Shown: positions 5,754 to 56,625 of the stretch, in pieces
Numbering within the stretch: position 1 is the stretch's first letter
Layout of the letters: every line of letters starts with the position of its first letter
DNA from: Lama glama
Taxonomy: Eukaryota
Reading direction: 5' to 3'
DNA: 64,000 nucleotides
Assembly: GCA_028534125.1 (NCBI GenBank)
Contig: CM052816.1
Coordinates: forward strand, 84,570,001-84,634,000
The notes under the pieces: model-generated
What the model saw: only the letters and a program-made list of their open reading frames with translations
The model's database searches: none
What the model was told of the DNA's origin: nothing
Made by a program: the position numbers and the translations under genes

Positions 5754-6253
5754 NNNNNNNNNNNNNNNNNNNNNNNNNNNNNNNNNNNNNNNNNNNNNNN
5801 NNNNNNNNNNNNNNNNNNNNNNNNNNNNNNNNNNNNNNNNNNNNNNNNNNNNNNNNNNNNNNNNNNNNNNNNNNNNNNNNNNNNNNNNNNNNNNNNNNNN
5901 NNNNNNNNNNNNNNNNNNNNNNNNNNNNNNNNNNNNNNNNNNNNNNNNNNNNNNNNNNNNNNNNNNNNNNNNNNNNNNNNNNNNNNNNNNNNNNNNNNNN
6001 NNNNNNNNNNNNNNNNNNNNNNNNNNNNNNNNNNNNNNNNNNNNNNNNNNNNNNNNNNNNNNNNNNNNNNNNNNNNNNNNNNNNNNNNNNNNNNNNNNNN
6101 NNNNNNNNNNNNNNNNNNNNNNNNNNNNNNNNNNNNNNNNNNNNNNNNNNNNNNNNNNNNNNNNNNNNNNNNNNNNNNNNNNNNNNNNNNNNNNNNNNNN
6201 NNNNNNNNNNNNNNNNNNNNNNNNNNNNNNNNNNNNNNNNNNNNNNNNNNNNN
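5754..6253. other. Assembly gap (500 N)
   Basis: Run of exactly 500 N, the same size as the second gap, so probably a placeholder of unknown true length. Confidence 0.99.
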
Positions 6254-8284
6254 AAAAAAAAAAAACACAATTAGAATAAATGAATTCAGTAAAGTTACAG
6301 GATACAATATTAACACACAAAAATCTGTTGCAAAATGTGTTGCATTTCTACACACTAATGACAAACCATCAGAAAGAGAAATGAAGAAAGCAATTCCACT
6401 TACAATTGCATCAAAAAGAAAAAAATACCTGGAATTAAATTTAACTAAGGAGATGGAAGACCTATACTTTAAAAATTGTAAGACATTGATAACACAAAAA
6501 TAGCACAAATAAATGGAAAGATATATCATGCTCATGAATTGCAACAATTAATATTGTTAAAATGTCCATACTATCCAAGTGAATCTGCAGTTTCAATATA
6601 ATCCTTATCAAAATACCAATAGCATTTTTCACAGAACTATAACAAATAATACTAAAATTTATATGGAACCACAAAAGACCTGGAAAAGACACAACAATCT
6701 TAAGAGAAAAAACAAAACTGGAGGCATCAATCTCCCTTATTTCAAACTATATATAAAGGTATAGTAATCTAAACAGTGTGGTAATGGTACAAAAACAGAC
6801 ATCAATGGAACAGAATAGAGAGCCCAGAAATAAACTCATACACATATGGTCAATTAATCTATGACAAGGCAGGCAGGAACATACAATGAGAAAAAGACAG
6901 TCTCTTCAATAAACATGTTGGGAAAAGTGGACAGCTACATACAAAAGAGTGAATCTGTACTGCTTTCTTACACCATATACAAAACTAACTCAAAATGGAT
7001 TAAAGATTTGAATGTAAAACTTGGAACGAGAAAACTCCTAGAAGAAAGCATGGGCAGTACACTCTTCAACACTGGTCTTAGCAATATTTTTTGGATCTAT
7101 CTCCTCAGGCAAGGGCAACAGAAGCAAAAAAAAACAAGTAAGACTATATCAAAAAAGGTTTTGCACAGCAAAGAAAACCAGCAAAAAACAAAAAGGCAAA
7201 CGGCTGATGGGAGAAGATATTGGCAAACAACATGTCCAATAAGGGGTTAATATCCACAATATACATATATAAAGAACTCACACAACTTAATACCAAAAAA
7301 CAAACAAAAAAAAATTTAAAAATGAGCAGAGGAACTGGAACAGACAATTCTCCAAAGAAGACATACAAACAGCCAACAGGCACATGAAAAAATGTTCAAC
7401 ATCACTAATCATCAGAGAAATGAAAATCAAAACTACAATGAGGTATCACCTCACATCTGTCAGAAAGGCTATTATCAAAAAGGCAACAAATAGCAAGTGT
7501 TGGTGAGGATGTGGAGAAAAGGGAATCCTCATATACTGCTGGTGGGATGGTAAACTGTTACAGCCACTATGGAAAACAGTATGGAGGTTACTCAAAAACG
7601 TGAAAATAGAACTACCATGAGATCCAGCAATTCTTCTTCTGAGTATTTACCCGAAGAAAATGAAAACACTAACTGAAAAAGATATATACACCCCATGCTC
7701 ATTTCAGCATTATTTACAATAGCCAAGACATGAAAGCATCTGTGCCCACTTACAGATGACTGGATAAAGAAGATGTGAGTTAGATAACAGAGAGATAGGT
7801 AGATAACAAAACATTGCTCAGCCATTAAAAAAGAATTAAATCTTGCCATTTGTGGCAACAGGGATGAACCTAGAGGGTATTATGCTAGTGAAATAAGTCA
7901 GACAGAGAAAGACAAATACCATATGTTTTCACTTGTATGTGGAATCTAAAAAACATACAAACAAACAAAACAAAATGGAATCAGATTCAAAGATACAGAG
8001 AACAAACTGGTAGTCGCAAGAGAGGAAAGGGGTTGTGGAGATGAGAAAAATAGGTGAAGGGGACTAAGAGGCACAAACTTCTAGTTATAAAATAAGTCAG
8101 TCATGGAAATGTAATATACAGAATAGGCAATATGGTCAATAATATTGTAACAACTCCAAGTGGTAACAGATAATAACTGTATGTGTGGTAATCATCTCAT
8201 AATGTATATGAATGTCAAACTACTATGCTATACAACTGAAATTAATATAGCATTGTATATGAATTATACTTGAATTAAAAAAAA
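6254..8284 (+). mobile_element. LINE-1 3' part (degenerate ORF2 C-terminus, 3'UTR, A tail)
   Basis: ORF2-like fragments (NKTGGINLPYFKLY; YTIYKTNSKWIKDLNVK), typical L1 motifs such as 'cagccactatggaaaacagtatggagg', and an A-rich end at 8277-8284. Many stops and frameshifts; the 5' part runs into the gap. Confidence 0.95.
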
Positions 8285-8289
8285 TTCTG

Positions 8290-9623
8290 TAAGACTAAAG
8301 GCAAAAACATAGTACATAAGCACTGTATTTTTGTTGATGAAGTTATTTCTTATGAGGGCACAGATCTAGCATTGCTTACTTGCATAGTGAAATTGAACAG
8401 TTAAATAGATGGGAGCCAGATGTCTCACTGCTGGCATGCAAATTCACAGATAGTAAGAGGAGGAGTCTTAAAAGGTCCCTGTAATGGAACATAACTGAGA
8501 CATCAGTTTGTACACATGTTCAGCTTAGTTAGACACAAATGTAGAAATATTTTTATATCTATGTTAATAAAAGGCTAATATACACACGTATTTCCTTCCT
8601 TTGTCAGCTTATAAGTTGAAAAGCTGGAACATCCCAGTAGCAAGGAGCACACCTAGCACCAAGATCTTGGTTTCTAAGACTATTCTCCAATAAAAGGAAC
8701 CTTTGAAGAAATGGCTGATTTTAAGGCTGAGGCAGGACATATACATGATGAGCCTAGAGTACCTGGCACAGGTATTGCTTATTGTGTTAAAAAGCAACAA
8801 AGTGCTAAAAAAGCAGATAAAACAAAAACAAATGGATGGAAATATGTCCAAGGGGTGCAGCAGGAACCAACTAAAAGAGTGCCCAAAGGCCAAAGCTAGA
8901 AAATTTGAGTAGAAATATTAATAAAGTAGTATTGAATTATAACACAAAGATTAAAATAAATATATATTGGTTCGTATTGATGTAATTAAACAATTGGATA
9001 AGTAAATATATGTGGAGAACAGACAAATCTCTCATGCAGAAGAATTAGAAATAATTTATGCAGATATTCTGTCCTCAAGGAGAGAGAATTTAAACCCCCT
9101 GTCCTTTAAGGTGAGCTGCACCAAGTTACCTCTTTCCAAAGAAAACGGAAAAGAGGGCAAAAAGTAACTTTATGGTGGAGAAAGCTGACAAACAGGACCT
9201 CAGCCAGGTGACTAAGGTCAGTATAAACAGTGATAGGTCATTTTGATAGTAAATACTCTTGACATGAGATGATGAAATGGAATTTTACCTCAGTGGTCTT
9301 CAATCTTACTAAAGAGAGCCTAAAGAAAGCCTAAGACTGCCCTAAAGAAAACATGCAAATAAATGTAATGCTGTGTCCTGTGCAGATCACAGAACAAAAA
9401 AAAAAAAACCTTAGATAATCTGAATAAAGTATGGACTCTGGCTAATAACAATGCATCAGTATCAGGCCATTGTTTATAATGAGTACTATCTTAACATAAA
9501 GTGTTAATAGGGAAAACTGGGTGCAAAGCATTTGAAGTATATGGGAACCCTCTGTGCTAAATTCTCAATTTTTCTGTAAATCTAAAACTGTTCTAAAAAT
9601 AAGTGTACTTTAAAAAAAGAAAA
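8290..9623 (+). mobile_element. Ancient L1 (L1MC/L1MD-like) 3' region
   Basis: Recalled motifs 'ggagaaagctgacaaacaggacctcagccaggtgactaaggtca' and terminal 'aaatctaaaactgttctaaaaataag' followed by an A run. Confidence 0.7.
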
Positions 9624-13700: not shown

Positions 13701-15548
13701 AACCACACTTTATACTTCAAAGAACCAGAAAAGTAAAGAAAAACTGAGACCAATGTTAGCAGAAGGAAGGAAATAAAGATCAGAGTGGAAATAAATGAAA
13801 TAGAGATCAGAAACAAAATCAAAAAGATTAATGAAGTTAAAAGCTGGTGGGGTGTTTTTAAAAAAAAAGAAAGGATAATTGACAGACCTTTAACTAAACT
13901 AACCTACAAAAATATGGAAATAACTGAAATAAAATCAGAAATGAAGAAGAGACATTACACCAAATGAACAGAAATACAAAGGATCCTGAGAGACTACTAC
14001 GAAGAATTATATGCCAAAAAACTGGATAACCTAGAAGAAATGGATAGACTCATAGAAACATATAACCTACCAAGACTAAATCATTAAGGAATAGAAAAAT
14101 CTGAACATTATCAATAACAAGTCATGGGAGAAATTTTCACATATTGAGGAATAATCTGTTTTGTAGCCTATTAAATATACATTGTATATATGCTTTAACC
14201 ATTAAATAAAAAGGGCACACTGCCCAGAAGTAAAGAATGTCCATTTTGAAGATAGAAATGCCTCCCTCCCTGGGACATCAATGCTAGTACTCTTTAGATG
14301 ATAAGGTTCACTTTCCAAGCGCCAAGGCCATACTGACTCGCTATGTGGTTGGTGATCTGTCTTTTTTGAAATCTTGAAGGAATGTACCCCTGTCACGTTT
14401 GATGTTCTAGGTTTGTTCTGGCAAGACACAAAACTGGGCTGACAGCCAAGCTTTTTTGGAACAGTTCCTCAGAGCTATCTGAGAGGCTGTCTCTCCCACT
14501 ACAGTCCTCAGTTTAGCTTGAATCAAACTCTCTTCTATTCTTATTACCAATTGGCTATTGATTATTTCCGTCAACACAAGTAAAGAGATAAAATCAAAAA
14601 CCTCCCAGTACAGAAGTCCAGAACCAGACTGTTTCAGTGGTGAATTCTACCAAACATTCAAAGAATACCAGTCCTTCTCAAACCCTTCAAAAAAACTGAA
14701 ATGGAGAAAACGCTCCCAAACTGATTTTGAAAGGCTGGCATCACTCTGTTACCAAAGCCCAATAAGGAAATTACAAGAAAATAACAGACCAATATCCCTG
14801 ATGATTATAGAGGCAAAGATTATCAAGAAAATATGAGCAAACTGAGTTCAACAGCACATTCAAAGGATCATGTATCATGATCAGTGAAATTTATCCTTGG
14901 GCTGCAACGAAGGTTCAACATATGCAAATAATAAATGTGATGCACACTATTAATAGAATGAAAGATAATCATCTGATCATGATCATCTCAACATTGCATT
15001 TAAGTTTTGCTAAATGCTGAAAAAAATTTAACAAAATACAACATCCTTTCATTATTAAAAAAAAAAAAAACCTCAGCAAATTGGGTATAGGAGGAACATA
15101 CCTCAACAAAATAAATGCCATATATGACAAACCCACAGCCAACAGCATACTCAATGCTGAAAAGTGGAAAGGTTTTCCTCTAAGGTCAAGACTAAGACAA
15201 GGGTACCCATCCTCATCACTCCTACTAAACATAGTACTGGAAGTCCTAGCCAGAGTAATTAACCAAAACAAAGAAAGAAATAAAAGGCATCCGAGTGGGA
15301 AGGAAGAAGTAAAAGTGTCTTCGTTTGCAGATGATTTGATCTTATATATAGAAAATAACGAAGATTCTACCAAAAAACTGCTAGAACAAAACAACAAATT
15401 CAGTAAAGTCGCAAGATACAAAATTAACATACAGAAAACTGTTGCTTTTCTACACTAACAACAAAACATGAGGAAAAGAAATAACGAAAATCTCATTCAA
15501 AAACAATAATACTTGGGAATAAATTTAACCAAGAAGGTGAAAAACCTC
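13701..15548 (+). mobile_element. LINE-1 ORF2 fragment including degenerate RT core, interrupted by a solo LTR
   Basis: ORF 15081-15458 has L1 RT motifs ([37 protein letters not shown]). Also SPEPDCFSGEFYQTFKE and NRPISLM at 14.6-14.8 kb. Disrupted by stops and frameshifts. Confidence 0.95.
14122..14576 (+). mobile_element. Solo ERV LTR (ERV1-like) nested in L1
   Basis: L1 homology breaks at 14121 and resumes at 14577. A 4-bp TSD CAAG lies at 14118-14121 and 14577-14580. The insert ends in ...tcaaCA and has an LTR-like R/U5 ('tgagaggctgtctctcc...agtcctcag'). Confidence 0.85.
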
Positions 15549-18124
15549 TTTCTCTTATCTGTTTTGTCAAAATGGATCTTTCCATCAAAAAAAAAAACAA
15601 AAAAACTCTCCCTCGCTTGCACAGGGAATTAACTTTTCACAGTGGTAACTTTATATTCATTGGAAGTAAATTCCAGACTCTTGTTTTGCAGTCCTTTTCT
15701 TCATATTTTGCCTTCTCTTGAGAAACTTTGGAGATTAGGTAATATAAAAATATTTTTCTATCATTATGTGTATAGTCTGAAAATATCTAGTACAAAAAAG
15801 TCTGTATTTTCTAAAAATACTAAAATGTAACTTTTCCATAATTTTTCCTTATTAGAACTGTATCTCAGAAGAAAAATTTTAATAAAGAATTGGTAATGGC
15901 CTTCCTTCCTAGGTAAGAAGAATAAGTATATACCTAGAGATTTTGGTGTGAAGTAAAAAATTGTAACAATTTTTGATACAAGAACAGATTTATTTTTTTT
16001 AAAAGAGTCCAGGTAGTATTCCTCATAAATAGGCAGTTTTTTCAACAATTAGAGTAATTTCATTTTAGTTTTAAAATATTGTATGTATTGTAATTGATTG
16101 TATTGTAACTTCATCATGTTAACACGTTACTTTAGTTGATATATTATATACCTCTACATATTTAGTAAAGCAAAAATAGACATTTTAGTTGCATTTTATC
16201 TTTCATAACAATAGTTATAAACTAGATTTGTGTATGTCTAATCACACAGACAACACGCACACACACCAACACATTAAAATTAAATAGTATATTAAGGTTA
16301 AATCAAAGATAATAAATATTAAAAGAATAATTTAAAAATACAAATTGAGATTACAATGCAAACATAAAAGGTGAGATAAAATCATATCTACTTGTCTCAG
16401 TTTATCTTGCTTTCAAATGATGAATACAAAAGAAATAATAAATTGTCTAAAATAAAATTAGTTTAATGTTCATAGACTTATCTGTATAAGCAAAGCTTAT
16501 GAATAATTTATTCCAAATTATTACATGGCGGAATCACAAAAAGTAAATATAAAATTTGCATTTGTTCCTGAAAAGCGACCAAGATTTTTCTGCTCAAAAA
16601 CAGTTATTTATTTTAATCACTATATTATTCTGTTGGTGCTCAAAATATTTGGCCTATTCCTGATTGATCTGTATCAAAAATTTCTTATTAAAAAACTTGC
16701 TAATGATCAATTTTGCTTGTTTTGGTTTATTTTCAGAATTTGTCAGGCACTACTTCTTGCCTTTAGATACTGATTTTCATTTTTACCTTGTATCTTCTCA
16801 CAATTTCTTGATTTTGTTAATGACAAATTAAATCTTTAGATTCAGAATAATTAAATATTTATTGACCACTGAATCCAGTCTAGATGGAATAAGCCTGCTA
16901 CAGCCCACCTGTCTTCCTGGTCATAACTACAAACTCTGGAAAAATTTTAAATAACTGCTTAAGAACTTGTAAAAGTAAACAAAAGCCAGCAGAGATAGGA
17001 AAGAGAATGAAAACTTGAAGAAGTAACTCATACAGAAGTAAGCTATGCAGCTTTATTTGTTCTTTGTTTAGGTTTTTGGCTTTGTTTTGTTATTTCTTTT
17101 CCCAGCACCCTCTGGTGAGATCCTAGCAGAGTAAACTTCCAAGAGAAACATCTATTTCGGCCAAAGAACTAAGAAAAATGTCCCTGTGCTCTGGACAGTT
17201 TAGGGAGAATATCCTGTTTTGGCTGTTTTTTTTCCCTGGAATCTTCGCCAGTTTATACAAAGATAGACACCTTCACTTTTTGAAAGGAAGGGGAGAAAAA
17301 CTCATTATGTTTGCTTAGTATTCTGTAAATTTAATTAATTCAGATCTCATGTGGTGCTCTTTCATTTTTTCAAACTTAAGAAAAAAAATCAACATATTTA
17401 AATGATTGTAAGTTTTAGGAATATATAGTCAAGTTCACGCACGAGGAACAGTACAAAGAGTTTGCTTGGATGTCTGCAAAGCTTACCACTACCAGGAAAC
17501 TGTCTCACTAAATCTTACCAAGGTACTGTGTCTGCCCTCAAAAGCTCCTGAAGATAATGGCTTCTCTTTTAACTGTAACATTTTATTCACATAATCCTCT
17601 CATTGACAAAATTTAACCTGAAACCAAGTATGGGAGGGGATTCTGGGAAATGCAGTTGGCTGCTTTAGATAAGAGTAATTACGATTCTGCATTTTAATTA
17701 TTTAAACAAGAGTAATATAGCATATCAACACTTCATTAATGATAACCCTTTCCCCAAAGATTTCCTAGTAGTTGGAATTTATCATGGATGAGCTGACGAC
17801 TTCCTTAAAAATAATTTAATGTGATTCAATTTGTAGAGTATTTTTATGCTTTGAAAATATTTATTATACCAAAAACAAAAAACTTTGCAACAATTTCATA
17901 AATCAGTGGGCTATGGATATGACTAAACAAAAATTAGCTACTTTTCCCCAAAAGTTGTTTATTAACTTTTCTATACTTTACTTCATTTAAATCACAATTA
18001 TAATTTTAATATTATACAGTTTCTCAAAATTAAATTATAATTTAAGAATTCAGGGATTATCACCATCACTGAAATATATACATATATATATAATATTTTA
18101 CACATGTCTCCTCCAAAATTCATA

Positions 18125-18127
<3 letters not shown>

Positions 18128-18160
<33 letters not shown>
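18128..18160. repeat. (AT)n microsatellite
   Basis: Perfect dinucleotide run. Confidence 0.97.
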
Positions 18161-18164
<4 letters not shown>

Positions 18165-21159
18165 GTGTAAATATTGTATTTACTTTTTATATTTCTCCAA
18201 ACTCAATGCTCAGGTATAATTAATAAGCTTCCATGATTATTTCTATTTGTTCTTTTATTTAAATTAAATTATTTAAATTGCAAGTTATAACTGTATTTTC
18301 TGCAAATTAGAAATTAAATACAGAAATTTCTTTAAATTATATGTAATTTATTAAAATAAGTTATATAATCAAACTATTTAAATTACAATATAAATTTTAA
18401 TTTTAATTATAATTAAATTGTTGTTTAAATAATAGATTGCATAGTCTTAATTTTCTTTTATTTACATTACATATATAACAGTTTGCCTATCTAAGTCAGT
18501 ACATACAGAAGGATGAAAATTTGGGGGGTCAAAATAGTATTCAGTATTCTATTATTAACATACTCTACTGTAACTAATCATTTTTTGTATAGGCATTGAG
18601 TTGATTCATTCTTTTCTTTAAGTGTTGCGAAGTACATATTGATAAATACATCTATCTATATTTGGTAAATTTACAGAACACTGATCAATAAATCTTTTCA
18701 TTGAATGGAGTCTCAAATTAATGCAGAGTTATGGAATTAAAATATAAACACATTCCTAACATAATTTACCTTATTCTCTGTAAGCGGAGAAACTAAGGAT
18801 CTGGAAGAATATGACTTGCCAAAAACACAACAAAAGTAAAAATAAAAAATAAGAGCTCACGTTTTCATTGTCTTTACTCAATGACAAACATTCTCTAAGT
18901 GTTTACAACTTCTTTACATTTATTACCTCAATGATAGGCATGCTATTATTAACCTCACTGACGGTGGACAGAATTGAGCGGCAGACAAGCAGAACCAAGC
19001 AGCAGTCATGGTAATGTTAGTAACAGCCACAGCTGTGGCAATAACTAACAATTATACAGTGCTTACTATGTGCCAGGCCTTGTTTTAATAAATTTATTCA
19101 GTTATCTAATGAAATAAAAATGATTATTATGATTATTTTACAAGGAAATAAGTGAGGCTCCATCCTAAACATGCTTTTATAAGATATGTACTAGCATATG
19201 GGTCAGTTACCATATGTTACTCACATCATCAACATTACTGTCCAGAGAGGACACATATTTACTCCTTCATTTAATGAATATTTCCTAAATAACTAGTGTA
19301 CATATAACCACTGTTGCTTGGGGCTTTTGAACCCCTTTCTCTTCATTCTATATAAAGATGTCTATAAGAAGACGTATTAAAATTCTCTAACAGTTAATTA
19401 CTTCCATGAAGATTCTATCCAAATCTACACAATTTTTAATTAGCCATATTACGTTATCTAATTTATTGATATTCATATTATGCATAGTGCTGTACATATG
19501 CACATACAGTTTACTGTAGAACATAAACAACATAAGTATTAACATCAGCGCTTTCGAGTCGTTGAAATATGTAAGTCTAATGAGAGATTCTCCTCATTTC
19601 AGTTTTTTCCTTTATCAACCTCATAGGAGCTCCTAATGGAGATATATACAATATACTTTAATTAGATTCCAATCCACTATTTTATTCTAGAAAAGACGGA
19701 AATTCAGTTGGAGTCTCTAAGTTATGTGTACCTTACAATACTTTTATTGCTAACTAAAATCAAACTAAGGAAAATTCACTGTACCATGAATTTTGTTGAC
19801 CTCAAAGAAAATTCTCTCACATAAGTTTAGGTTTTCTTAAAAGTAAATAGTACTTTAGTGTCGAAGAAATAAATTTTATTCGGAGAGAAAAAGTTAGTCA
19901 CCAAAGTATTTATGACATGAAAATGTGATAAAATAATGACAGATTGATGTGAAAAAGAGGGATTATGCAAACACAGAAAGTATCTTCCACCATATGTTTG
20001 TGTAATGAAGCCAGAAAATCATTCAAATTGTTTTAGCTAAAAGGAAGGCATTGTATTTAAAGTAAATATTCCTTGTTTCAATTGAAATAGTTCAACAAAC
20101 TATTTTAGGTATTACTATTTACCAAGTACTGTGGCTGTAACTTGGTATATAAAATTGTATCATTTAAGATGTTTAAATCTAGGTAAAAATATAATTATAT
20201 TAAAAATTATGAGATAATTTCAATACAGTCATATAAGTTTTAAGAAAGTGAAGGGAATAAAGTAGTTAAGGAAGAAGTAATTCATCCAATTTATTGCTTT
20301 GTTTTTAATAGCTAACAGAGAGATGTTTGTCACATGCCATTCGTTCAGATGAACAACCTACATTTCTTTTCTTGTTTAATCCTCAGTGTGAATCATCATG
20401 GGAATCAATTACTATAATTATTGCTATTTTGTAATATCCTTATTTTGTAATGAGGCATATCAGGCTTTGAATGGTTTGATGTCTTTTCCATGGTTCCACA
20501 GCTTGTGAAAAGTGTAGCCAAGATTATAACCCACAGTCATCTAACCACAGAGTTTACGGAGATGACATGTGATCCAAATCTGAAGTATGAACTATAATTA
20601 CTTTGAGTGGAGAGTGATAGAGTTGTGGACTGGGCTTGTTGTGTTGATTGTGATGCTGATGCAAATGGTGTGTGTGGGGTTGAGTGTTAAGTTAAAAAAA
20701 AAAAGCACATAATAGTATAAAATAGTCATTTCAGGAAATGTATAAAGACATAAATTACGGTATCCTGTGCAGGAAAGTAAACATGCTCTTTATTTGAACA
20801 TGAAAGTATTGTAAGAAGATCAAGTTTGAAAGTTGGGTAGTTAGAAATAAAATCGGCAATTGTGGAGTAAACATATCAGAGAAGCTCCTACATCAATTTC
20901 ATGAAGCTTGCTATTTTCCTGAAGAATACAGGAAATAACTGGAGTGCTTGAAGACAGGTGGTGGAGCAGTCATATTTGTGTTTACAGCTCATTCTTCCTT
21001 ATGAAGAACGGATACTTTATTAAGTTTATAAAGATATAATTTACACACATTAAAATGCACCTGAATGTATACACTTGCATAACTCCATCACCCAAAATGT
21101 TCCCTCACACCCCTTCACAATCAAACTCACCCATCTTCAGCCCCAGATAATCAATCATC

Positions 21160-21400
21160 TACAGTAGCCAAACCTTGGAATCAACAAACACAAATCTCTA
21201 TCATCAGGAGATTGGATAAACAGATTAAAGTATACTTATGCAATGGAACTTTTTTAGTAATAAAAAAGGATCAACCATGATGCATGCAGTAACATAGAAA
21301 AATCTCAAGAACATTATGTTGCAAGAAAGAAGCCAGGCACAAGAAAACACGTTTACATGAAATTTCCAAACAGCAAAACTAATTATAGAAAACACATCTG
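21160..21400 (+). mobile_element. Ancient L1 (L1ME-like) 3' fragment
   Basis: 'agtagccaaaccttggaatcaac...ggagattggataaacag...aatctcaagaacattatgttgcaagaaagaagccaggcacaa' resembles old L1 3' regions. Confidence 0.65.
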
Positions 21401-21839
21401 TAAGCACGCAGAAGTGCTTAGGTAAGGAGACTGTTTAGATGGTTTGTTAAGAAAAGTCTTAATTATGGAGGTAAAAATAGTTTTTTGTTAAGTAGAATTG
21501 GGTTATTAAATTTCCTGTACTTGTATATTACAACTAAAACTTTAATAATAATTTTAAAATACACTGTTTTGGAAATTAAGATACCTCAAATTCAGATTTA
21601 AATTTTAGTTCTGTCATGTATTAATTGTAAACTCTTTAGAAAGTTATTGTATCTTACTGAACTTCAAAATCCCATAACCAACGTTCAAGATAACTTTTCT
21701 CCTTGAGCTTTAGTAATTATATAATGGCCTGACATATTAAAGAGCTTAATAGAATATCTGGCTCATGGTAAACTTATTTCAAGTGAAGGGTAGGTAGATA
21801 TTATTTCAGTACTCATCTTATGAAAAAAAAAATTCTTAC

Positions 21840-23290
21840 CTTTTCACAAGCTGAGAAGATACCTGCTCAGTCATGACTTGAGCACAGGTGACCCTTCCCT
21901 CCTCAGTCTCTGCCTGGCCCGATGCTGTGACCGCAGCGTGAACAGCGGGGCCAGGACAGGGCGGGTGGCAGGTGCTTGGGCTTGGAGGACGAGATCCAGC
22001 GAGAGATCCAGCTTGGGGGCAGGTCGGCGGGCACCTTGTGGCCCTCACGGTCGACTTTGGTGAGGTGGTGGTCCAAGACAGATTCTTCATTATCCAGCAG
22101 CCCGTCCCGGTCTACATCGGCTAGGTTCAGGACCTTGCTCAGCGCCGTACCTAGCGGCAGGGACTTGTCTCCTACTTAGCGTTGGCACCTGATCTGACCG
22201 CTGAAAGGTGGCAGCTTGTTGATCTCGTTGTAGGTGGGCTAGTTCCTGCCCACCACTCGCTCAAGGACATCAGTGTCCTCACCAGCCCCCTCGCCACAGT
22301 CACGCCCAAAAAGCCTGATCTGGGAGCCATCCAAGGCACGGCCCTTCACCGCCTGGGCGGGCATCGCGGGCTCCACCAGGCACACGGTCGCGGTCCGCAC
22401 GGCGATGCCACCGACCGGCATACCGCCCACTGTGCCAGCAGCTTGGGCTTCCAGGCCTGGAACTTCAGCGCCACGCTCTCCTGTCCCACGGGCCTGGACA
22501 ACTTCTGACTTCTGAGAACTCCTTGAAGATGGTCACTATTCAGGTGTCAAAGAGCAGGGTGACGTGGTGGACAGGCCACTCGGGGGCCGCCACAAAGACG
22601 TAACCTTCCTGAGGCGCTATTTCTCTCCAGACCCTCCCTCTCCGGGAGGGCCGGAGACGCGCCTGCAGTCCAAGGCCGGCCGGGCAGCTGAGCACACCTG
22701 AACCTGCCGAGGAATCCGCAGGGAAGATGCTGAGCGTGTGGAAGCGGCGCCACAGGCCCACGACGAGCGCGCGGCCGGGAACCGCGTCCTTGGTGAGGCT
22801 GTCCGGTGGTGACAGTGGTGTGCTCGGCTGATGTGCATCCCCAGGAAGCGCTTCTTCACCAGGTGCCTAGTGCAGGTGGTTGGGCCTGTACTGCCCCAGC
22901 CCACGAGGTGGGATTCAGAGTCCTCCAGCGCCGGTGACTGCAACTCGTGGAGTTAGGTACACTGCTCTTCGGCGGGAGCGGTACTGCTCCTCCAGGAGCA
23001 GCAGCTTCTGGGAGGCCAGTGGGCGCAGCCCCCGCCATCATTTGGAACAGCTCTGGCTCCTTCTTGTGGCGGGTGTCCTTGCTGACCCCGCTGAACGTGC
23101 TGCGAGAGACACGGACGGCTGCGGCTGCGCAGACGCGCGGCTGAGAGCGAGCGGGAAGACGGCCCAGAGCCAAGGCGGGAAGGGCCGCGGGCGCAGGCTT
23201 CCGCAGGGCGGGGGTCCTGGGAGCGGCCGGCACTGCGCGTGCGCGCCGCGAGGCCGGCGGAGGCGCCTGCTTCTGGGCGGATAACGTGCT
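21840..23290 (-). pseudogene. EHD1: Processed pseudogene of EH domain-containing protein 1 (EHD1): 5'UTR-like part, disrupted CDS, short proximal 3'UTR
   Basis: Minus-strand frames give TFSGVSKDTRHKKEPELFQ (EHD1 MFSWVSKDARRKKEPELFQ; ATG appears as ACG at 23098-23096), QKLLLLEEQY, SPALED, GWGSTGPTT (degenerate P-loop GQYSTGKTT), LLFD, FQAWKPKLL, GEGAGEDTDVLERVVGRN and DVDRDGLLDNEE...HLTKVDREGHKVPADLPP (EH domain). There are no introns at the recalled EHD1 exon 1/2 and 2/3 junctions (~22703, ~22604). Frameshifts and stops are present (TGA 22540-22542, TAG 22239-22241). Confidence 0.93.
21900..23290. promoter_or_regulatory. CpG island coincident with the EHD1 retrocopy; densest at 23.1-23.3 kb
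   Basis: About 29 CpG counted by eye in 23101-23280. GC boxes at 23206-23213 and 23275-23280; NRF1-like TGCGCGTGCGC at 23234-23244. Flanks are strongly AT-rich. The composition is seen directly; promoter activity is inferred. Confidence 0.7.
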
Positions 23291-23619
23291 GAGATGGAGG
23301 AGTTTTTTCATAGGGAATTGGAGAGTTTCCCTTAAAAGAACAAGGTAAATGCGTCTGCATGATCTTGTAACATCTACCCTTTTCTTTAGGTGCACGTTGT
23401 GTGGTGCCAGGAGGAGGTGTCTCTGCTTTCACCAACTTAGGTGATAGGAGTCAAGTGTGTAATTGAGAAGATCATTTTTTGAAAATCTGCACTAAAGTAA
23501 AATTCTGGAGTTAATAAAGACCAAAGAAAACATTATAACTAAGTTTTCAGACTTTATGGTGATGTTATTCAAAATGTGAGGCTGTAACTAGGAGAGGTTA
23601 GCCTTAAGAACTAGTCAGG

Positions 23620-23784
23620 AACTGAATAGCACAGGGAACTATCTTCAATATCTTGTGGTAACGTGCAATGAAAAAGAATATGAAAAGCAATATATATATG
23701 TACATGTATGACTGAAACATTATGCTGTGCACCAGAAATTGACACAACATTGTAAACTGGCTATACTTTAATAAAAAAAAAAAA
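23620..23784 (+). mobile_element. Young, 5'-truncated LINE-1 3' end with poly(A)
   Basis: 'atagcacagggaactat...tgctgtgcaccagaaattgacacaacattgtaaactggctatactttaataaaaaaaaaaaa'. Similar flanks (aagaactag / agaaactag) are a probable TSD at a TT/AAGA site. Confidence 0.88.
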
Positions 23785-24618
23785 GAGAAACTAGGTAAAG
23801 AAAACATACCTTTATATATGAGATAGTTTATAATCTAGTGCATTTATGTCTTAATTTATCATATTGACCCATTGATGTTTAATAGACAAGGTTTGGTAAT
23901 TTACTATTTCAAAGTATTTTAAAATGGAACTTGTAATAATGTATTAGCTCAGACTCAGACCAAAAAAGTGCCTTTACTGCCTTCATCAGATGGTCTGTGT
24001 TGGGATACACATTACGTGAGATCTTTGAGATGCTCAAGTTTAGCTGAATATCAACAATGGACTATTTCACTGCAAAGGATCAAATATTTTGTTTCCTTAT
24101 AATCCCAACTAAATTATTTTGTTCTGAAAGAAACTGATCAAGTAGAATCAACCACTTATAAATCTTGCTCTCATTTATAAATTTCTTCCGTTTTCCTGTC
24201 ATGGAATACAGTAAAGCTATGAAGTCATAGGTGTTTAATTTTAATACACATTAAAGTTTTATAGCACATGATGGGATTCTTCTTATGTATTTTTGCATTT
24301 CCCAGAAATGACTCAGTGATATTATTTTTAGTGTGCCCATAAATAGCTAATGAACATTCAATGAACCATTAAGAGAAAAAGTACTTCCCATTGCCCCTAA
24401 TAGCTTTTTATCAAAATATAATGAAATGGAAAATTGACAGTCCAATGTGAGTTTGATACAAAATTGGAATGCAAAACACACTGTCAGTTCACATGAAAAA
24501 TAATAATGTGAAATGCCACTACATGACCATTTGATTGCATTGACCCTATTCATAAATAAGACTATTGTTCTAAAAGCCCAGAAATGACATTTATGCTATG
24601 TAAAATGTGAATATAGTC

Positions 24619-50170: not shown

Positions 50171-50670
50171 NNNNNNNNNNNNNNNNNNNNNNNNNNNNNN
50201 NNNNNNNNNNNNNNNNNNNNNNNNNNNNNNNNNNNNNNNNNNNNNNNNNNNNNNNNNNNNNNNNNNNNNNNNNNNNNNNNNNNNNNNNNNNNNNNNNNNN
50301 NNNNNNNNNNNNNNNNNNNNNNNNNNNNNNNNNNNNNNNNNNNNNNNNNNNNNNNNNNNNNNNNNNNNNNNNNNNNNNNNNNNNNNNNNNNNNNNNNNNN
50401 NNNNNNNNNNNNNNNNNNNNNNNNNNNNNNNNNNNNNNNNNNNNNNNNNNNNNNNNNNNNNNNNNNNNNNNNNNNNNNNNNNNNNNNNNNNNNNNNNNNN
50501 NNNNNNNNNNNNNNNNNNNNNNNNNNNNNNNNNNNNNNNNNNNNNNNNNNNNNNNNNNNNNNNNNNNNNNNNNNNNNNNNNNNNNNNNNNNNNNNNNNNN
50601 NNNNNNNNNNNNNNNNNNNNNNNNNNNNNNNNNNNNNNNNNNNNNNNNNNNNNNNNNNNNNNNNNNNNNN
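50171..50670. other. Assembly gap (500 N)
   Basis: Run of exactly 500 N. Confidence 0.99.
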
Positions 50671-55891: not shown

Positions 55892-56625
55892 TTTTTATTT
55901 TTTAATTGTGGTGAAATATGTGTAATATAAAATTGACCATTTATTCATTTTTAAGTGTACAGTTAAGTGATATTAAGTACATTCACATCATTGTACAACA
56001 TTTACCATCATCATGTCAGAATTCTTTGCATCTTGCAAAACTGAAATTCATATACATTAAACAATAGTTCCCCATTGCCCCTCCTCCCAACTGCTGGCAA
56101 CCACCATTCTCCATTCTGCTTCTATGAGTTTGACTACTCTAAGGTATCTCACATAAGTGGAAGCATAGAGCAGTTGTTCTTTTGTGACTATTTTATTTTA
56201 CTTGACATCGTAACTTCACGTTTCATCCATGTGGTAGTGTGAATAGGCATTTCCTGCCTTTTTAAGGTTTAATAAGTATTCCATTGTGTATATATACCAC
56301 ATTTTTTTAATCCATTCATCTGTAGATTAACACTTGGGTTGCTTTTGGCTATTATAAATAATGCTGTTATGAACATGAGGGTACAAATAGCTTTTGAAGA
56401 CCCTGCTTTCAGTTTTTTGGGGTATATACCCAAAAGTACAACTGCTGGAACGTATGGCGATTCTGCTTTAAATTTGTATGTGTGGTGGGGAACCATACTC
56501 TTTTCCATAACAACTGCACCATTTTACATCCCATCATCCGTGCAGTAGGAGTCTGATTTTTCCACATACTCGCTAACACTTATTTTCTGTTTTTTTTAAT
56601 AGCAGTCTTGCTACTGAATATGAAA
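55892..56625 (-). mobile_element. L1MB-like 3' end
   Basis: T-rich tail, then 'aattgtggtgaaatat...aagtgtacagttaagtgatattaagtacattcaca...ctggcaaccaccattct'. ORF 56269-56508 resembles the ORF2 C-terminus (ICTLMFITALFIIAK). Confidence 0.9.

Follow-up and report, generated by a model that had tools for sequence, protein, structure and literature searches.

A dead EHD1 retrocopy that is the sole CpG island in an AT-rich region of the llama genome

How does a gene copy whose reading frame is broken throughout remain a CpG island? The window analysed here is a 64,000-nt stretch of the Lama glama genome (G000:C1:84570001-84634000, CM052816.1); positions are counted from its first letter unless a contig is named. 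The window has a GC content of 0.33 and a CpG observed/expected ratio (o/e) of 0.21, and the corresponding values for the surrounding 664 kb are 0.33 and 0.16. Positions 21840-23290, by contrast, have a GC content of 0.65 and 109 CpG, with an o/e of 0.72, as expected from an earlier sequence-only reading that described a decayed EHD1 retrocopy forming a CpG island in an AT-rich desert. That reading proposed germline hypomethylation or re-enrichment in GC as the cause, and possible co-option as a regulatory element. We present evidence, to which we attach a probability of about 0.58, that a dead processed EHD1 copy has kept the CpG density of its parent, and that it is likely unmethylated in the germ line, has likely undergone moderate GC-biased conversion (gBGC) and likely yields a low-level spliced non-coding RNA.

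The EHD1 copy, its setting and its age

The features that define the copy and its immediate neighbour are as follows.
21845..23262, minus strand: aligned body of the processed EHD1 copy, coinciding with the CpG island (977/1316 columns identical to the parent's joined exons)
23096..23098, minus strand: dead start codon, ACG (alignment to parent)
22878..22901, minus strand: broken P-loop, GWGSTGPT for GQYSTGKT (alignment to parent)
22703..22704, minus strand: exon 1/2 junction without intron (alignment to parent)
22604..22605, minus strand: exon 2/3 junction without intron (alignment to parent)
22466..22505, minus strand: 40-nt filler where the parent mRNA has 497 nt spanning most of exon 3, the whole of exon 4 and the start of exon 5
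23621..23792, plus strand: short interspersed-repeat piece, repeated in the flanks and of very high depth, which we take to be an L1 3' end; an unrelated neighbour

The parent is EHD1 on contig C36, a gene of five exons that encodes an intact protein of 534 aa and matches alpaca EHD1 at 100% identity in exon 5. Both the 5' and the 3' UTR of the copy align to this gene, which identifies EHD1 itself, and not a paralogue, as the source. The copy begins near the parent's start site and comprises the 5' UTR, exons 1-2, the start of exon 3, exon 5 and about 110 nt of the 3' UTR. Introns are absent at junctions 1/2 and 2/3, as in a processed pseudogene, and junctions 3/4 and 4/5 fall in the deleted part; the missing middle and 3' UTR were not found within 264 kb. 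The copy stops at an A-rich tract in the 3' UTR and lacks a poly(A) tail, and no target-site duplication was found, there being no 8-mer common to its ends; such absences are expected at this age or after internal priming. A second EHD1 copy as an intermediate donor was considered and rejected: none was found in the genome, and the three remaining matches were assigned to exons of EHD paralogues, one of them having been read.

Copy and parent agree in 74% of aligned columns (K2P 0.32), hence their divergence is not low. The coding part contains 15 indels, 10 of which are not multiples of three, and four in-register stops. The lost start codon, altered P-loop, frameshifts and stops of the sequence-only reading all reappear in this alignment, and the reading frame is disabled. 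The 497-nt internal deletion, the absence of a poly(A) tail and a splice donor at the 3' edge are additions to that reading. The copy stems from an EHD1 mRNA inserted into an AT-rich desert, with no coding constraint on its later decay. Two insertions in the copy, of 12 and 25 bases (21990-22012 and 22950-22977), look like local tandem duplications.

CpG islands, orphan islands included, are commonly defined by a GC content >0.55, an o/e >0.65 and a length >500 bases. The EHD1 copy exceeds all three (GC 0.65, o/e 0.71-0.72, 1.4 kb) and is the sole CpG island in 664 kb, where CpG-rich sequence otherwise occurs only at a probable L1-like 5' end and in a short exon of a cadherin gene. The former (G000:C1:84461951-84463150) lies 130 kb from the island and, with a GC content of 0.60 and an o/e of 0.42, has the appearance of a partly decayed island. 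At the left edge of the EHD1 island GC drops to background within about 50 bases, without a conversion shoulder. No coding exons are evident elsewhere in the 64-kb window, which also holds L1-like fragments at 6413-8343, 14500-15460 and 55898-56597 and N runs of 500 bases each at 5754-6253 and 50171-50670.

Cadherin last exons were detected on the same contig at 82.08 Mb (minus strand) and 84.97 Mb (plus strand), with three more beyond. The island is upstream of the plus-strand cadherin gene, and the first coding exon of this gene, 310 kb away, is the nearest detected by a search that covered cadherin motifs and long frames, short of a full annotation. By sequence this gene is likely CDH9: the best Atlas cluster for the exon bears the automatic name 'CDH9' at 0.93, followed by cadherin-11 at 0.92. 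The setting would then be the CDH6-CDH9 desert. An intronless EHD1 copy that lies this far from any detected gene start, and is the only island of the region, supports the proposal of a retrocopy-born orphan CpG island.

The age of the insertion is bracketed by residues of the parent protein. In a panel of 120 EHD1 proteins, none of them from a perissodactyl, A406 and R492 occur together in 14 of 14 cetartiodactyl entries and in 1 of 106 others (a gecko). At both sites the copy has the codons of the camelid parent, a coincidence with a chance of about 4e-4 given its own substitution spectrum. At residue 108 the copy's codon, GCG, differs by a single change from the valine codon found generally and by two changes from the methionine codon of camelids. 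On these codons, insertion probably took place in the cetartiodactyl lineage before the camel-llama split. Third codon positions differ at 87/352 where 76 would be expected from positions 1+2; the parent has therefore changed just 3% (+/-6%) at third positions, as suits a copy of moderate age. If the insertion is at most about 75 My old and neutral change along the branch amounts to 0.09-0.13, the divergence of the copy (K=0.31) is about 2.5-3.5x too high, which would imply faster than neutral change. A metagenome scan for EHD1 DNA of other mammals yielded one distant locus, at 60%, that was left unused; it thus supplied no DNA outgroup, and no orthologue was seen outside camelids.

Retention of CpG and direction of substitution

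The copy carries 106 CpG where the matching parts of the parent carry 105, with a GC content of 0.65 and an o/e of 0.71. CpG density peaks in the copied 5' UTR: positions 23101-23280, for which about 29 CpG had been counted from the sequence alone, hold exactly 29 (GC 0.78, o/e 1.10).
23099..23283, minus strand: copied EHD1 5' UTR, the CpG-densest part; the parent itself has 23 CpG in the aligned columns
~23235, minus strand: NRF1-type motif in the copied 5' UTR
~23206 and ~23275, minus strand: GC boxes in the copied 5' UTR
~23157 and ~23181, minus strand: E2F-type motifs in the copied 5' UTR, both absent from the parent's exon 1

These motif matches are candidate sites. Among 96 aligned parent CpGs, 32 were kept and 32 became TG/CA. 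Conversely, of 94 CpGs in the copy, 62 face a different dinucleotide in the parent, TG/CA in 26 cases, and some of these 'new' CpGs may be losses on the parent's side.

Decay of the parent sequence was simulated in eight runs per setting with an assumed 2:1 bias to A/T. Methylated decay, with tenfold CpG mutation, left 10-15 CpG, and unmethylated decay without a push toward G/C left 78 CpG and a GC content of 0.52. Under the assumptions of the simulation, methylated decay by itself can be excluded, and an unmethylated state alone does too little for GC. The sequence-only reading had offered hypomethylation and GC re-enrichment as alternatives; since neither alone fits the simulation they are not alternatives, and the substitution patterns support both indirectly.

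Recent change was followed in four of 20 listed runs, compared over 16000-24000 (the small-share runs X3, X4, X6-X10 and the raw-read runs X15-X20 were left out). X1, X2 and X5 come from a related (sister) species and X11 is near-identical to the window. The listed differences of X1 in the island number 34 of 47, leaving 13 unlisted. Six of the 34 are CpG transitions, a rate ratio of 3.6 (p=0.04 against a tenfold ratio, 0.005 against fifteenfold and 0.02 against no excess); in the worst case, with all eight unlisted transitions at CpG, the count of 14 fits a tenfold ratio (P=0.32). Transitions and transversions over all 54 places stand at 27:27, which is low for methylated DNA. Germline hypomethylation of the island is likely on this sequence evidence.

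A dromedary EHD1-like protein provides a value to set beside the island's 3.6: CpG transitions explain five of its 11 changes, a ratio of 12.6. Two dromedary models, P0096 and P0097, have 10 substitutions in common relative to the camelid parent, half of them CpG transitions. Judged from the protein, the gene is likely a young Camelus retrocopy; a copy of this type was not found in the Lama glama genome. It is a possible same-gene control for methylated decay.

The opposite view takes the island for a methylated pseudogene like any other, derived from a CpG-rich gene and not yet decayed completely, and the RNA signal described below for stray DNA. It can point to the 32 of 96 parent CpGs that went to TG/CA, to the worst-case CpG count and to an RNA depth of 2.5-7. 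Such a pseudogene would nevertheless have diverged by 26% with no net loss of CpG or GC, where the simulation leaves 10-15 CpG and the L1-like 5' end 130 kb away has fallen to an o/e of 0.42, and stray DNA would not break at a splice donor. We regard this view as very improbable. Alternatively, methylation in one germ line only (RB1-like, oocyte-methylated) would make the island an imprint-like, differentially methylated retrocopy. The CpG transition ratio is indeed intermediate, exceeding 1 at p=0.02, RNA contig ends at 23438 (see below) allow an upstream exon, and retrocopy-born islands unmethylated in sperm and half-methylated in soma are known, in the account given in the sections of PMC4122923 drawn on here. 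The cases described there sit in introns of host genes, however, and no host gene is evident at this locus, so that we give this alternative only a slim chance.

Retention of CpG in an island that is likely unmethylated leaves its GC content to be explained. The direction of substitution was read at codon positions 1+2, because mammalian versions of the parent protein hardly vary. Changes from A/T to G/C (W>S) occurred at 85/351 sites and the reverse (S>W) at 56/350 (p=0.008), a bias toward G/C that persists away from gaps. The equilibrium GC at these positions is 0.60 (CI 0.53-0.67), or 0.55 (0.46-0.65) with all CpG sites masked; over all sites with CpG masked it is 0.59 (0.52-0.66). The mutational equilibrium is assumed to lie near 0.38. 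Relative to this reference, equilibrium GC is raised even with CpG masked, as at gBGC hotspots, and the bias is moderate, with B of about 0.7-0.9. GC-neutral changes are also common, at 5-8% for S>S and 5-6% for W>W, so that a raised mutation rate is needed besides gBGC.

Recent changes differ in their spectrum. Polarised with the parent EHD1, 27 of the 34 listed X1 differences comprise 14 S>W, six W>S and seven GC-neutral changes. The resulting equilibrium GC of 0.43 (CI 0.17-0.64) rests on 20 changes and separates from neither 0.38 nor 0.60; a G/C bias since the camelid split is not detectable in these 20 polarised changes. The recent spectrum tells against strong present-day conversion.

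These data bear on a further possibility, that hypomethylation and a raised mutation rate of the promoter type suffice, with no recombination hotspot and with the G/C bias a product of the local mutation spectrum. The recent equilibrium of 0.43, the many GC-neutral transversions and the sharp edges of the island all suit it. The long-term equilibrium of 0.55-0.65, however, exceeds the mutational value of about 0.38, and the unmethylated simulation drops to a GC content of 0.52. The same source is favourable in one respect and adverse in another: germline mutation peaks at start sites, those of lncRNAs included, and G and C suffer a net loss near start sites, in the results of PMC13712754 consulted for this work. 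We consider this possibility improbable.

For the preferred reading, with past gBGC at an unmethylated island, hypomethylated loci bear gBGC peaks in many mammals with intact PRDM9, according to the material used from PMC11161765. A PRDM9-like gene lies near a contig end in the llama assembly (G000:C35, ~26.883-26.889 Mb; L076:8050-8400), with open SSXRD, SET and zinc-finger exons. On the SSXRD, SET and zinc-finger exons, loss of PRDM9 as an explanation is unsupported. The terminal array of this gene shows two complete fingers only, of near-identical units, and is probably collapsed in the assembly.

Transcription, constraint and a proposed course of events

RNA contigs cover all six bins of the island in each of X1 and X2, which belong to one study, and X5, which belongs to another; left of the island they cover 6, 9 and 0 of 22 bins, respectively. 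The runs were found via the island itself, and cover is weak evidence by itself; the contigs show neither strand nor level, and RNA libraries can contain DNA. The flank to the left, being the presumed intron, provides no silent control. Two further features bear on transcription.
21834..21842, minus strand: splice donor AAG/GTAAGA at the copy's 3' edge; last exon base 21840
23254..23438, strand unassigned: island edge not derived from EHD1, with 1/185 differences, covered by RNA contigs of two studies

The donor occupies the place of an A-rich tract in the parent's 3' UTR and is the sole minus-strand match to MAG/GTRAG in 16001-24000, where there are 16 looser sites. Record 4 of X1 (157 letters, depth 3.7) aligns from 21840, with 54 letters unaligned beyond it. 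Record 18 of X2, from the same study, runs through 21840 unspliced, which makes a species indel at this position unlikely. No joint is listed inside 16000-24000, and the next exon would therefore lie outside. At the other end, alignment breaks off at 23438 in contigs of both X2 and X5, leaving six and 19 letters unaligned. Either an indel or a weak acceptor on the minus strand at 23436/23435 would fit, and given these ends the island would be either a first or an internal exon. The single contig that breaks at the donor suggests that the island is now an exon of a spliced non-coding RNA. Two other arrangements were rejected: a plus-strand donor at ~23345 with an acceptor at ~23390, through which the RNA contigs run, and a far promoter for the cadherin gene, for which no joint is seen within 16000-24000. 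As a side observation, the human lncRNA PURPL presumably lies near the position of the island as scaled from cadherin-gene distances, a coarse estimate based on approximate human coordinates; its orientation is that of the spliced RNA, and no homology is claimed.

Differences between species gave no sign of constraint on the island apart from the edge at 23254-23438. The island differs at 45/1259 positions (3.6%) and the flanks at 24/905 (2.7%; p=0.26), and five of the seven differences to X11 fall in the island, which makes up 27% of the length (p=0.02). The edge has fewer differences than the island (p=0.02) and than the flanks (p=0.10), for a region picked post hoc. A 150-codon minus-strand frame has three silent and 10 replacement differences where 28% silent are expected, indicating no coding constraint, and a protein search returned no homologue of it (0 of 2578 candidates scored). 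The sister species retains nine bases at 22575-22577 that the window's copy lacks relative to the parent, so that the loss of these bases happened recently in the lineage of the window; one base, at 22644, is in turn missing from the sister species.

Regulatory co-option, which the sequence-only reading had raised, is not borne out by this comparison of island and flanks, and the RNA cover and the one spliced-looking contig suggest activity. In its full form the proposal holds that the island was co-opted and selected as a functional lncRNA promoter or a distal cadherin element, selection favouring G/C and CpG. It would accord with the lack of any other CpG island in 664 kb, with RNA contigs from two studies and a donor that looks used, with 1/185 differences at the edge and with two E2F-type sites that the parent lacks, and orphan islands do serve as promoters in the parts of PMC5927659 and PMC4772013 on which we rely. 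A selected element would not be expected, however, to diverge at 3.6% where its flanks diverge at 2.7%, to collect most of the X11 differences or to change faster, not slower, than expected over the long term; transcription of the spliced RNA would lead away from the cadherin gene, and the 150-codon frame (three silent, 10 replacement) has no homologue. Selection of this kind is unlikely, and no selected function is needed to explain the island.

A divergence of 2-4% suggests that the species of the RNA runs are Old World camels. If so, and with a camelid split at 16.3 My, the date used from PMC12337305, the recent rate in the island would be about 1.1e-9/year and the earlier rate at least 5e-9/year.

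We propose the following course of events. An EHD1 mRNA with a CpG-rich 5' UTR was copied into the AT-rich desert, probably in the cetartiodactyl lineage and before the camel-llama split, and its coding sequence then decayed. The copied promoter-proximal sequence, with its NRF1-type site and GC boxes, may have kept the insert unmethylated in the germ line, so that its CpGs were not drained. The open, unmethylated island would in turn have attracted recombination, fixing A/T-to-G/C changes and holding GC at 0.65; this conversion, probably mostly in the past, may together with a raised local mutation rate have sped divergence. Finally, as one contig suggests, the donor at the copy's 3' edge would be used by a minus-strand transcript that leads away from the cadherin gene. 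A bolder version is doubtful as a whole: the dead copy would have seeded its own unmethylated island, which became a long-lived recombination hotspot, was rewritten in early ancestors of the camelids 3-4x faster than the DNA around it and gave rise to a new spliced gene and the sole CpG island of the CDH9 desert, as one of a datable class of retrotransposition-born hotspots.

Relation to known systems

A pseudogene of a conserved parent is a natural experiment with a known starting sequence, from which the birth and upkeep of a CpG island can be read without coding selection. The EHD1 copy adds a date bracket, a possible methylated control in the dromedary and the hint of a new splice site. 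If a class of such loci were confirmed, it would allow a direct test of whether hypomethylation and GC-biased conversion suffice for islands in PRDM9-bearing mammals. As a single locus whose function is not demonstrated, it is of moderate significance.

The copy resembles L1-mediated processed pseudogenes, whose features are well established, in its joined exon junctions, its start near the parent's start site and its decay. It differs from them in that neither CpG nor GC has decayed, and no poly(A) tail or target-site duplication is left. In mainly non-subscription literature we found no description of GC-gaining processed pseudogenes, and none of this locus; the supplementary retrocopy lists of PMC4772013, which possibly include an orthologue, were outside that scope. 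Of the claim that the locus is undescribed, the part concerning the locus thus stands, whereas its kind is already known from what we have drawn from PMC4122923, PMC4772013 and PMC11161765.

Human retrocopy-derived CpG islands include RB1/PPP1R26P1, ASRGL1/retro-RCC2, PARP11/retro-OTUD4 and PDXDC1/retro-KIAA2013, and about 75% of 104 such islands are fully methylated, as given in the consulted portion of PMC4122923. Like these, the EHD1 island was made by a retrocopy that carried the parent's 5' CpG island sequence, and its probable transcription is weak. The human islands described there are intronic, of primate age and measured for methylation, whereas the EHD1 island lies in a gene desert on present evidence and is known from sequence; it is also 26% diverged, broken throughout and biased toward G/C in its substitutions.

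PRDM9-independent hotspots at hypomethylated loci of placental mammals, as presented in the main text of PMC11161765, share with the EHD1 island an elevated equilibrium GC across about 1.5 kb of DNA that is rich in CpG and presumably hypomethylated, and the llama genome resembles those in which they occur in having a PRDM9-like gene with open SSXRD, SET and zinc-finger exons. Those loci are orthologous to mouse and dog hotspots, and camel and alpaca are unnamed in that text; the EHD1 island, unlike them, was born within a lineage, and its bias is moderate and undetectable in recent changes.

Finally, the EHD1 island is like the orphan-island promoters of PMC4772013 and PMC5927659, as far as the passages used describe them, in that no annotated gene is attached to it, it is probably transcribed and it may have a new splice site. 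Retrocopies in those systems mostly take over an island that was already present, and they may remain coding; here the island consists of the dead EHD1 copy, which would contribute an exon to a non-coding RNA.
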